A stretch of DNA of 64,000 nucleotides, taken from Escherichia coli (GTDB lineage: Bacteria > Pseudomonadota > Gammaproteobacteria > Enterobacterales > Enterobacteriaceae). The translations under genes were made by a program, and so were the position numbers. The notes under the pieces are model-generated. The model ran no database searches. It was not told the origin of the DNA and was given only the letters and a program-made list of their open reading frames with translations. The DNA is taken from the NCBI RefSeq assembly GCF_048403405.1, contig NZ_CP183129.1, one strand, 5' to 3'. The first letter of the stretch is position 1; each line of letters begins with the position of its first letter. This document shows positions 10,611 to 64,000 of this stretch, piece after piece.

Positions 10611-10637
10611 GGGAGGCGAAGGTGCCTCCTGTTTTTA
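10611..10637 (+). terminator. rho-independent terminator downstream of envZ
   Basis: Hairpin ggaggc-gaaggt-gcctcc followed by tgttttt. Confidence 0.6.
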
Positions 10638-10931
10638 GATTGTTTTCAATTGATTGATAATGAAAGGATTCGCTTGCAAAAGCAGGAGCAATTTTCGGGG
10701 TGCTCCGGTAGGTTGACGGCGTTTGGTTTCCCAGCTTTTGACCAGGTCATAACTTACCCCTACGGCGACAGCAAAATCTTGCTGACGTAAACCCGTTGCT
10801 TCACGGATCGCTTTTACATCGATTTCGCTAAAAGTATGGACGTGCTCTGGTTCAGGCGCTTCTTCACCCTTTTCGATGCGTACCATTTCTTCTGCGCTGG
10901 CAAGAAGATCAGCAAATAATTCGTCTTTCAT
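10635..10931 (-). CDS. putative type II antitoxin, XRE-family helix-turn-helix protein (YiaG/HigA-like)
   Basis: 98-aa ORF; HTH region GLRQQDFAVAVGVSYDLVKSWETKRRQP and C-terminal LLLLLQANPFIINQL resemble E. coli YiaG-type XRE regulators; 58 bp downstream of, and co-directional with, the toxin ORF. Confidence 0.6.
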   Translation of the reverse strand: MKDELFADLLASAEEMVRIEKGEEAPEPEHVHTFSEIDVKAIREATGLRQQDFAVAVGVSYDLVKSWETKRRQPTGAPRKLLLLLQANPFIINQLKTI

Positions 10932-10989
10932 CTGTTTTCAATGCCTCCGTTGGCATTTCGGCCATGGTGGAATTTGTGGAGCTTCAACA

Positions 10990-11307
10990 TTAAAGCAGCT
11001 TCTCGGACAATAGTTTCAATGCCTTTCTTTGTTCTTCTGTTAAATCATCCTGTTCATTTTTAGGATAAATCAACGCCAGATAAATTCGGCCATTGCGTGT
11101 TACGTTGTAATAAATTATCCGAATGCCACCCCGTTTCCCCATTCCAGAACGGTTCCAGCGAATTTTTCTAAAACTGCCTGTGCCTGCGATAATGTCACCG
11201 GCAGTGGGATCTTGAATGAGTAGTTCCTGAAAAGCCCGGAACTCATCATCAGGTAACAATAACTGGCGGCGTTTGCTAAATCCTTGTAGTTCAATAAACG
11301 TGAACAT
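10990..11307 (-). CDS. putative type II toxin, RelE/ParE superfamily (HigB/Gp49-like)
   Basis: 105-aa ORF; motif GGIRIIYY...RIYLALIYPKNEQDDLTEEQ typical of RelE/HigB-like mRNA interferase folds; AGGA about 6 nt upstream of ATG; toxin-first order as in higBA. Confidence 0.6.
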   Translation of the reverse strand: MFTFIELQGFSKRRQLLLPDDEFRAFQELLIQDPTAGDIIAGTGSFRKIRWNRSGMGKRGGIRIIYYNVTRNGRIYLALIYPKNEQDDLTEEQRKALKLLSEKLL

Positions 11308-24857: not shown

Positions 24858-25251
24858 ACGCTGGTTGTTGGCAGGTATTGCATTGTGCCTTTTAACCGGT
24901 ATGCGTGACCCTTTTAAACCGCCGGAAGATCTATGCCGGATTAGCGAACTTAGCCAGTGGCGCTATCAGGGGATGGTAGGGCGAGGCGAGCGCATCATCG
25001 GTGTAATAAAAGACGGGCAAAAAAAATGGCGACGGGTGCAGCAAAACGATGTGCTGGAAAACGGCTGGACGATCTTACAGCTAACGCCAGACGCACTAAC
25101 GCTGGGAACCGGGACAAACTGCGAACCGCCACACTGGTTGTGGCAACGGCAAGGAGATACAAATGAAGCAATGGATAGCCGCACTACTGTTGATGCTTAT
25201 ACCCGGCGTACAGGCGGCAAAGCCGCAAAAAGTGACGCTGATGGTGGATGA
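24847..25251 (+). CDS. hofP: type IV pilus assembly protein HofP (PilP-like)
   Basis: 134 aa from MRGKRWLLAGIALCLLTG (lipoprotein-like signal). Confidence 0.8.
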   Translation: MRGKRWLLAGIALCLLTGMRDPFKPPEDLCRISELSQWRYQGMVGRGERIIGVIKDGQKKWRRVQQNDVLENGWTILQLTPDALTLGTGTNCEPPHWLWQRQGDTNEAMDSRTTVDAYTRRTGGKAAKSDADGG

Positions 25252-26401
25252 CGTTCCGGTAGCTCAGGTGTTGCAGGCGCTGGCTGAACAGGAGAAGTTG
25301 AACCTGGTCGTGTCGCCAGACGTCAGCGGTACGGTGTCGTTACATCTAACAGATGTTCCCTGGAAGCAGGCACTACAAACTGTAGTAAAAAGCGCCGGAC
25401 TGATAACGCGGCAGGAAGGCAACATTCTCTCGGTGCATTCCGTTGCCTGGCAGAATGACAATATCGCCCGTCAGGAGGCGGAGCAGGCGCGGGCGCAGGC
25501 AAATCTGCCGCTGGAAAATCGCAATATTACTCTGCAATACGCCGACGCCGGAGAGCTGGCGAAAGCGGGGGAGAAGCTACTGAGTGCCAAAGGGAGTATG
25601 ACCGTCGATAAACGCACCAATCGCCTTTTGCTGCGAGATAACAAAGCGGCGTTAAGCGCGCTTGAACAGTGGGTAGCGCAAATGGATCTGCCGGTCGGGC
25701 AGGTTGAGCTGTCGGCGCATATTGTCACCATTAATGAAAAAAGTTTGCGTGAGTTAGGCGTGAAATGGACGTTGGCTGATGCGCAACAAGCTGGTGGCGT
25801 TGGGCAAGTCACCACGCTTGGCAGCGACCTCTCCGTAGCGACGGCGACAACGCATGTCGGTTTTAACATTGGACGCATCAACGGACGTTTACTGGATCTT
25901 GAGCTTTCCGCGCTCGAACAAAAACAGCAGCTGGATATTATCGCCAGTCCGCGTCTGCTTGCCTCACATCTTCAGCCTGCCAGCATTAAACAGGGGAGCG
26001 AAATTCCATATCAGGTTTCCAGCGGGGAAAGTGGCGCGACGTCGGTGGAATTTAAAGAGGCCGTCCTGGGGATGGAAGTTACGCCCACGGTGTTACAAAA
26101 AGGTCGCATCCGGCTGAAATTACACATCAGCCAGAACGTTCCGGGGCAGGTGCTACAGCAGGCCGATGGCGAAGTGTTGGCGATTGATAAGCAGGAGATC
26201 GAAACGCAGGTCGAGGTCAAAAGCGGAGAAACGTTGGCGCTGGGCGGCATTTTTACCCGTAAAAATAAATCGGGTCAGGATAGCGTACCGTTGCTTGGCG
26301 ACATTCCCTGGTTCGGGCAATTATTTCGTCATGACGGAAAAGAAGATGAACGACGCGAGTTAGTGGTGTTTATCACGCCACGACTGGTTTCCAGTGAGTA
26401 A
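25163..26401 (+). CDS. hofQ: secretin HofQ (PilQ/ComE-like outer membrane channel)
   Basis: 412-aa ORF with signal peptide and secretin domain; last gene of hof cluster. Confidence 0.9.
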   Translation: MKQWIAALLLMLIPGVQAAKPQKVTLMVDDVPVAQVLQALAEQEKLNLVVSPDVSGTVSLHLTDVPWKQALQTVVKSAGLITRQEGNILSVHSVAWQNDNIARQEAEQARAQANLPLENRNITLQYADAGELAKAGEKLLSAKGSMTVDKRTNRLLLRDNKAALSALEQWVAQMDLPVGQVELSAHIVTINEKSLRELGVKWTLADAQQAGGVGQVTTLGSDLSVATATTHVGFNIGRINGRLLDLELSALEQKQQLDIIASPRLLASHLQPASIKQGSEIPYQVSSGESGATSVEFKEAVLGMEVTPTVLQKGRIRLKLHISQNVPGQVLQQADGEVLAIDKQEIETQVEVKSGETLALGGIFTRKNKSGQDSVPLLGDIPWFGQLFRHDGKEDERRELVVFITPRLVSSE

Positions 26402-62031: not shown

Positions 62032-62622
62032 ATGAAAGTAGCAAAAGACCTGGTGGTCAGCCTGGCCTATCAGGTACGTACAGAAGACGGTGTGTTGGTT
62101 GATGAGTCTCCGGTGAGTGCGCCGCTGGACTACCTGCATGGTCACGGTTCCCTGATCTCTGGCCTGGAAACGGCGCTGGAAGGTCACGAAGTTGGCGACA
62201 AATTTGATGTCGCTGTTGGCGCGAACGACGCTTACGGTCAGTACGACGAAAACCTGGTGCAACGCGTTCCTAAAGACGTATTTATGGGCGTTGATGAACT
62301 GCAGGTAGGTATGCGTTTCCTGGCTGAAACTGACCAGGGTCCGGTACCGGTTGAAATCACTGCGGTTGAAGACGATCACGTCGTGGTTGATGGTAACCAC
62401 ATGCTGGCCGGTCAGAACCTGAAATTCAACGTTGAAGTTGTGGCGATTCGCGAAGCGACTGAAGAAGAACTGGCTCATGGCCACGTTCACGGTGCGCACG
62501 ATCATCACCACGATCACGACCACGACGGTTGCTGCGGTGGTCATGGCCACGATCACGGTCATGAACACGGTGGCGAAGGCTGCTGCGGCGGTAAAGGTAA
62601 CGGCGGTTGCGGTTGCCACTAA
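62032..62622 (+). CDS. slyD: FKBP-type peptidyl-prolyl isomerase SlyD
   Basis: 196-aa ORF with His/Cys-rich metal-binding C-terminal tail. Confidence 0.96.
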   Translation: MKVAKDLVVSLAYQVRTEDGVLVDESPVSAPLDYLHGHGSLISGLETALEGHEVGDKFDVAVGANDAYGQYDENLVQRVPKDVFMGVDELQVGMRFLAETDQGPVPVEITAVEDDHVVVDGNHMLAGQNLKFNVEVVAIREATEEELAHGHVHGAHDHHHDHDHDGCCGGHGHDHGHEHGGEGCCGGKGNGGCGCH

Positions 62623-62671: not shown

Positions 62672-62890
62672 TCAATAATGTGGCGGTGGCGTTTCTTCAG
62701 CCTGCGACGCGATGTTCGACGGCTGGCTGGCTTTTAGCTTCTCGGTCAGCAGACGCAGATGATCGCGCAGTTTCGCCATCTCCATTTCATGAGCGGTCAC
62801 CGTGACGTTCAGTTCTTCAATGGTGATTTCCTGAAAAGCCAGTCGGCTCTCCAGCTCTGCCAGGCGTGCTTCCAATGATAAATCCTGCAT
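62672..62890 (-). CDS. slyX: protein SlyX
   Basis: 72-aa coiled-coil ORF. Confidence 0.9.
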
Positions 62891-63110
62891 GATTCACCTC
62901 TTTTGTCGAATGGTCGCCGCGGATTCTACTTAACTTTGCTGCCCGAGACAGCACTCATTTCGCGGTCATCGAAACTAATTTAAACAAAAAGAGTCTGAAA
63001 ATAGATGATAATAGGGCGTGTCTGTATGTAGATTTGTTCGACAACGCTTTATAGTACCCTTCTGATAATAGTTAACCCTGGGGTGAGATGCCCCGATCCT
63101 GGAGATATGG

Positions 63111-63925
63111 ATGAAATCACTGTTTAAAGTAACGCTGCTGGGGCGACCACAATGGCCGTTGCCCTGCATGCACCGATCACTTTTGCTGCTGAAGCTGCAA
63201 AACCTGCTACAACTGCTGACAGCAAAGCAGCGTTCAAAAATGACGATCAGAAATCAGCTTATGCACTGGGTGCTTCGCTGGGTCGTTACATGGAAAACTC
63301 TCTTAAAGAACAAGAAAAACTGGGCATCAAACTGGATAAAGATCAGCTGATCGCTGGTGTTCAGGATGCATTTGCTGATAAGAGCAAACTCTCCGACCAA
63401 GAGATCGAACAGACACTGCAAGCATTCGAAGCTCGCGTGAAGTCTTCTGCTCAGGCGAAGATGGAAAAAGACGCGGCAGATAACGAAGCGAAAGGTAAAG
63501 AGTACCGCGAGAAATTTGCCAAAGAGAAAGGTGTGAAAACCTCTTCAACTGGTCTGGTTTATCAGGTAGTCGAAGCCGGTAAAGGCGAAGCACCGAAAGA
63601 CAGCGATACTGTTGTCGTGAACTACAAAGGTACGCTGATCGACGGTAAAGAGTTCGACAACTCTTACACCCGTGGTGAACCGCTCTCTTTCCGTCTGGAC
63701 GGTGTTATTCCGGGTTGGACAGAAGGTCTGAAGAACATCAAGAAAGGCGGTAAGATCAAACTGGTTATTCCACCAGAACTGGCTTACGGCAAAGCGGGTG
63801 TTCCGGGGATCCCACCGAATTCTACCCTGGTGTTTGACGTAGAGCTGCTGGATGTGAAACCAGCGCCGAAGGCTGATGCAAAGCCGGAAGCTGATGCGAA
63901 AGCCGCAGATTCTGCTAAAAAATAA
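63111..63925 (+). pseudogene. fkpA: periplasmic FKBP-type peptidyl-prolyl isomerase FkpA, apparent +2 frameshift in signal-peptide codons (or assembly error)
   Basis: ATG at 63111 encodes MKSLFKVTLL then leaves frame at the GGG run 63141-63143; the rest of FkpA (MAVALHAPITFAAEAAKP... to ...AADSAKK) is in a +2 frame from 63152; deleting two G restores the expected LLATTMAVA. Confidence 0.7.
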
Positions 63926-64000
63926 GCATTAAGAACCGCCGCCTGACCAGGCGGCGGTTTTTTTATTACAGGCCGGATATAATTAGTGCTGGAAAGCGGA

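Follow-up and report, generated by a model that had tools for sequence, protein, structure and literature searches.

The question raised by this locus is whether the fkpA gene in the stretch of E. coli DNA analysed here (64 kb, hereafter the window) has been inactivated by a true mutation or only appears so through an error in the deposited sequence, and what would follow for the export of its product. The gene, located at 63111-63925 on the plus strand, is disrupted and pseudogene-like, with a length of 815 nt versus an 813-nt coding sequence in its relatives. At the affected site the window reads CTGCTGGGGCGACC, with a GGGG run at 63140-63143 (+), where all 5,423 matching complete E. coli genomes read CTGCTGGCGACC. 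In the wild type the GG spans a codon boundary, its first G ending Leu10 (CTG) and its second opening Ala11 (GCG); with two G more, the fkpA frame is shifted after codon 10. That the difference reflects a genuine 2-bp insertion (GG to GGGG) in codons 10-11, private to this strain and inactivating fkpA, we rate at a probability of about 70%. An insertion in a G-run had been recognised in a preliminary description of this DNA, which was right as to the event and wrong as to the extent of the run, having placed it at 63141-63143 as GGG instead of at 63140-63143 as GGGG.

The ATG at 63111 encodes MKSLFKVTLL, after which the window reads GGG CGA CCA CAA TGG (translated as GRPQWPLPCMH...) and terminates at 63350. 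This ORF (63111-63350, +), which had been described correctly and is seen in both the sequence and the list of ORFs, comprises 79 aa, namely 10 FkpA residues and 69 out-of-frame residues, followed by the stop; the truncated product proposed for this start is thus the outcome of a +2 insertion in the part of the gene coding for the signal peptide. The remainder of FkpA had been said to be intact in another frame from the Met at 63152, and a 257-aa ORF is indeed present there (63152-63925, +), starting at Met14 and comprising the whole mature protein preceded by 12 residues from the end of the signal peptide. Removing two G restores MKSLFKVTLLATTMAVALHAPITFA..., which is the same as the annotated FkpA of the nearest genomes (WP_000838261.1, 270 aa), and the N-terminus given in the preliminary description was therefore correct. 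As the window stands, the N-terminal Sec signal peptide (residues 1-25) is not in frame with the mature protein.

The disrupted gene is fkpA by sequence, domains and position. A search against the NCBIfam equivalog NF008150 assigned the 257-aa ORF a score of 503.4 bits (E=1.4e-151; curated cut-off 215 bits) over profile positions 14-271 of 271, compared with 533.9 bits for the intact FkpA of a relative, and profile positions 1-13 are the exact extent that is missing from the ORF. Precomputed Pfam matches for the exact 257-aa product are FKBP_N (PF01346), the chaperone/dimerisation domain, followed by FKBP_C (PF00254), the PPIase domain; the 79-aa product had no NCBIfam family match. The gene order slyD-slyX-fkpA-yheO is kept, with slyD at 62032-62622 (+) and slyX at 62672-62890 (-) upstream, placing fkpA in its conserved chromosomal position between slyX and yheO. 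The window thus has the same locus as other E. coli, both domains complete, and DNA equal to the WP_000838261.1-encoding genes except for 2 nt, but unlike an intact E. coli fkpA (the protein we take to be UniProt P45523) its frame is broken after codon 10, which uncouples the signal peptide from the mature protein. A Shine-Dalgarno sequence, GGAG, lies at 63101-63104 (+), 6 nt 5' of the authentic ATG and the same in relatives, with a duplex energy of -6.4 kcal/mol against the 3' end of 16S rRNA. An intrinsic terminator follows the gene at 63931-63966 (+), composed of a 14-bp stem with a GC-rich core and then a T-run (hairpin -24.2 kcal/mol, z = -6.2), and since this strong terminator ends fkpA no polarity on yheO is anticipated. 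The output of a sigma-70/terminator pattern scan did not include the terminator at 63931-63966. Transcription of fkpA is reportedly sigma-E-dependent, a promoter type outside the scope of a sigma-70 pattern scan.

The comparison with closely related genomes that the preliminary description had recommended was carried out at two scales. For the 1.1-kb fkpA region, E. coli genomes matching at 99.8% number in the thousands, the best of them differing by nothing but the 2-base gap. Over 25 kb the window has six near-identical complete genomes; three of the relatives were aligned across all 64 kb, namely strain 4621 (a blood isolate from Houston), TUM1226 (Japan) and isolate 68 (OX030728; Spain), and MS 69-1 (human colon) was aligned over the last 25 kb of the window only. 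The window belongs to a human-associated E. coli clone together with these four. Each of the three fully aligned relatives differs from it by 6-7 substitutions and one indel, the fkpA GG, which is also the only indel of the window's own against MS 69-1 in the last 25 kb. All four have GG at the site and an intact fkpA, identical to that of the window apart from the 2-nt insertion. None of the approximately 250 homopolymers of at least 5 nt in the window, reaching A8 and T7, has changed in length relative to the relatives. MS 69-1 has one T more in the T-run of the fkpA terminator (window position 63957) than the window and the other relatives, a long-homopolymer difference of the kind expected from an error-prone assembly; the window has none. 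Substitutions private to the window relative to the four near-identical genomes number four, all missense: IgaA V53A (19238), PBP1a (mrcA) R706H (20879), HofM W230L (23803) and, approximately 8 kb from fkpA, YhfA H21L (54772). The sister genomes have 1-3 private substitutions each over the same stretch. No gene of the window other than fkpA is broken by its private changes. Overall the window looks like another natural member of the clone rather than a noisy assembly.

The +GG allele is private to this strain and had not been recorded before. Of 5,426 complete E. coli genomes searched with a 65-mer across the insertion, 5,423 gave a match and none of these carried the +GG, with a carrier defined by at least 99% identity on the 65-mer (0 of 5,423). 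With no carrier there and no second indel across the 64 kb, the fkpA difference is not attributable to chance. Exact matches to a 38-mer were absent from the GTDB species-representative genomes, a weak test since E. coli has a single representative among them, as were exact matches to a 29-mer from the JGI metagenomes, and the exact 79-aa product had no record in the assembly collection. Gene callers seldom call short overlapping ORFs of this sort. Given that all of the sister genomes are intact, the change, if real, is very recent and unfixed.

The same observations bear on whether the extra G exist only in the consensus, as a sequencing, assembly or polishing artefact in a strain that truly has GG and an intact fkpA. 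Such an error would account for a length change within a mononucleotide run, for an allele that is unique among the complete genomes, GTDB representatives and JGI metagenomes searched, and for its falling in an otherwise conserved gene whose sequence is the same across the sister genomes. The homopolymer errors of the usual platforms are, however, mainly single-base and concentrated in long runs, so that two bases gained in a 2-nt run are atypical, and the long runs and the rest of the window are clean, a combination which favours a true mutation. Neither a Dam (GATC) nor a Dcm (CCWGG) motif, which could mislead long-read polishing, occurs at the insertion site. Apart from the GG, what is private to the window consists of clean substitutions, about as dense as those of the sister genomes. 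We thus regard an artefact as unlikely, albeit deserving of serious consideration, and depart here from the preliminary description, which had judged it no less likely than a true pseudogene. An upstream part of the fkpA leader, CTGGGGTGA (63078-63086), resembles the mutated CTGGGGCGA (63138-63146) 60 nt away; this may be a coincidence or a hint of templated mutation, and the insertion can be explained without it.

Other lesions at the 5' end of fkpA are present in public assemblies. The exact 257-aa product occurs on 34 contigs, compared with at least 1,000 for the intact protein, and NCBI lists the remnant under the name of an ordinary 'FKBP-type peptidyl-prolyl cis-trans isomerase'. We compared the upstream DNA for ten places listed with this product (L003-L012) and found a lost start codon (ATG>ACG, L003), a +1 T (L004), an inserted Mu-like element (L005), a -1 A in two runs (L006 and L009), a +2 insertion (L007), a TCA>TAA nonsense mutation (L008), a foreign junction (L010), a chimera with an Illumina adaptor (L011) and a contig end (L012). 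None of these ten places has the +GG. At least seven distinct lesions in codons 1-13, from unrelated samples, are represented by L003-L010, where the outcome is the same as in the window, with gene callers falling back on the 257-aa ORF from Met14, but the molecular lesions differ. These assemblies show that sequenced E. coli, natural and laboratory strains alike, have repeatedly lost fkpA through lesions in codons 1-13. Because a look-up of the 257-aa product returns only genes damaged upstream of Met14, no lesion rate can be derived from it. We also rejected the look-up as independent support for the +GG, each listed place being either another lesion or a contig-end or adaptor artefact. NCBI holds other truncated FkpA fragments as well, for example one of 75 aa from Shigella dysenteriae 1617.

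Assuming the insertion to be real, ribosomes starting at the ATG at 63111 with its GGAG would read FkpA only as far as Leu10, continue out of frame and terminate at 63350, giving a basic 79-aa peptide that has no family match and in which the hydrophobic core would be interrupted by Arg12; this peptide is probably neither exported nor stable. The sole in-frame entry to mature FkpA is Met14 (63152). A start at this position would lie within the translated upstream ORF, preceded by just the weak Shine-Dalgarno-like GGGG, and its product would begin MAVALHAPITFA-AEAA.... The MAVALHAPITFA segment is without a lysine n-region and has approximately 4-5 hydrophobic residues, predicted to be too little for a Sec signal. 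By the rules for signal peptides, a product without a basic n-region and with a core of 4-5 residues stays in the cytoplasm. The expected result is a cell with essentially no periplasmic FkpA. The Shine-Dalgarno-like pairing 8 nt 5' of Met14 has an energy of -4.7 kcal/mol with the insertion and -1.9 kcal/mol without it, the true start having -6.4 kcal/mol, and approximately 20% of all ATGs in the window pair as well; the new GGGG was rejected as a useful Shine-Dalgarno for Met14, its pairing energy being ordinary for the window.

A real mutation would be an ordinary gene inactivation. What fkpA is, that it is dispensable and what its loss entails are already established. Colicin M-tolerant mutants of the tolM class were reportedly described by Braun et al. 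in 1980. FkpA is needed to refold or activate the imported colicin M, so that the main phenotype of its loss should be colicin M insensitivity, with general envelope biogenesis covered by SurA, Skp and DegP. In a study of fkpA colicin M-tolerant mutants (Hullmann et al. 2008, PMC2615193), deletion of fkpA gave viable and fully colicin M-insensitive cells, mutants of SurA, Skp, PpiD or PpiA staying sensitive. The classical spontaneous tolM mutants proved there to be fkpA alleles, with IS1 insertions or a stop codon, which tolerate colicin M and keep the functions of FhuA and TonB; the published alleles are IS1 after nt 457 and nt 498, a stop at codon 164, Y25N and G148D (PMC2615193). The class is defined there by colicin M insensitivity with FhuA and TonB still working, complemented by fkpA+. 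Activity of colicin M needs both FkpA domains by whatever route the toxin enters the periplasm (PMC8469651). The tolM mutants and the window share a loss-of-function fkpA allele, but the tolM lesions are all in the mature protein, that of the window shifts the frame by +2 within the signal-peptide region, and colicin M insensitivity is in the window an expectation. One effect of the insertion would be predictable, namely tolerance of colicin M, with little else expected.

A real mutation would be expected to leave the isolate without periplasmic FkpA and tolerant of colicin M. This would matter where colicin M or a related bacteriocin is considered for use against the clone, an extraintestinal one, or where the strain serves in studies of envelope protein folding, and would have little bearing beyond this strain. 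For annotation, the locus is better described as a frameshifted fkpA pseudogene than as a 257-aa 'FKBP-type isomerase'.

It is doubtful that the frameshift, if real, owes its presence to positive selection, for which exposure to gut bacteria producing colicin M would be the most plausible cause, instead of having arisen as a neutral or slightly deleterious recent mutation. In line with selection, fkpA nulls form the classic spontaneous tolM class, with FhuA and TonB functions retained (PMC2615193), public data hold several independent lesions in the same 13 codons, and disruption of fkpA restored resistance to deoxycholate, a bile salt, in one engineered waaL background (PMC12505904). The lesions came, however, from a look-up that could return only N-terminally damaged genes and gives no rate, and 34 contigs against at least 1,000 with the intact protein are as would be found for any dispensable gene; the four intact sister genomes likewise speak for a very recent and unfixed change over a selected one.

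A real but leaky allele, in which a -1 slip on G_GGG and/or internal initiation at Met14 keeps some FkpA, is very unlikely. The slip would involve the P-site tRNA-Gly moving back by one nucleotide on G_GGG before the slow CGA codon, which would restore the frame, and retains full GGG pairing. By translation, a -1 shift at 63141-63143 gives full-length FkpA with one extra Gly, MKSLFKVTLLGATTMAVAL...; as the additional residue would be in the signal peptide, cleavage would leave wild-type mature FkpA. In addition or as an alternative, internal initiation at Met14 would supply cytoplasmic FkpA, and here the strengthening of the Shine-Dalgarno-like pairing by the insertion is in favour. CGA is a slowly decoded codon, and single-tRNA slips on 4-nt runs are normally rare. 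Against the leaky reading, the site has neither an X_XXY_YYZ heptamer nor a conserved stimulator, the allele is private with nothing pointing to selection on the site, the Shine-Dalgarno-like score of Met14 is equalled by approximately 20% of random ATGs, and its ATG would be occluded by ribosomes on the 79-aa ORF. That the +GG allele is a low-expression fkpA rather than a null, with some periplasmic FkpA made through the tRNA-Gly -1 slip, we regard as the least probable of the readings. A programmed ribosomal frameshift was rejected, the site being CUG_GGG_CGA with no slippery heptamer and the allele being absent from 5,423 genomes, as was a phase-variable contingency locus, the tract being short, invariant at 2 nt among all relatives and 4 nt only here.

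Several other features of the window were recorded alongside the fkpA insertion. Three of the five private changes are in cell-envelope genes (igaA, mrcA and fkpA), which could easily be chance given how few the changes are. The H21L substitution in YhfA, a rare variant, has one other match, on a 1.5-kb metagenome contig that is 99.1% identical and belongs to a different lineage. The hofQ gene (about 25163-26401, +) is intact in the window, with CAA at 25679, and is intact in TUM1226 and OX030728 too; strain 4621, the nearest genome, has TAA at that codon and its hofQ is annotated as a pseudogene with an internal stop. Between envZ and pckA (about 10635-11307, -), strain 4621 is identical to the window and is annotated with a small RelE/ParE-family toxin gene and a NadS-family gene.
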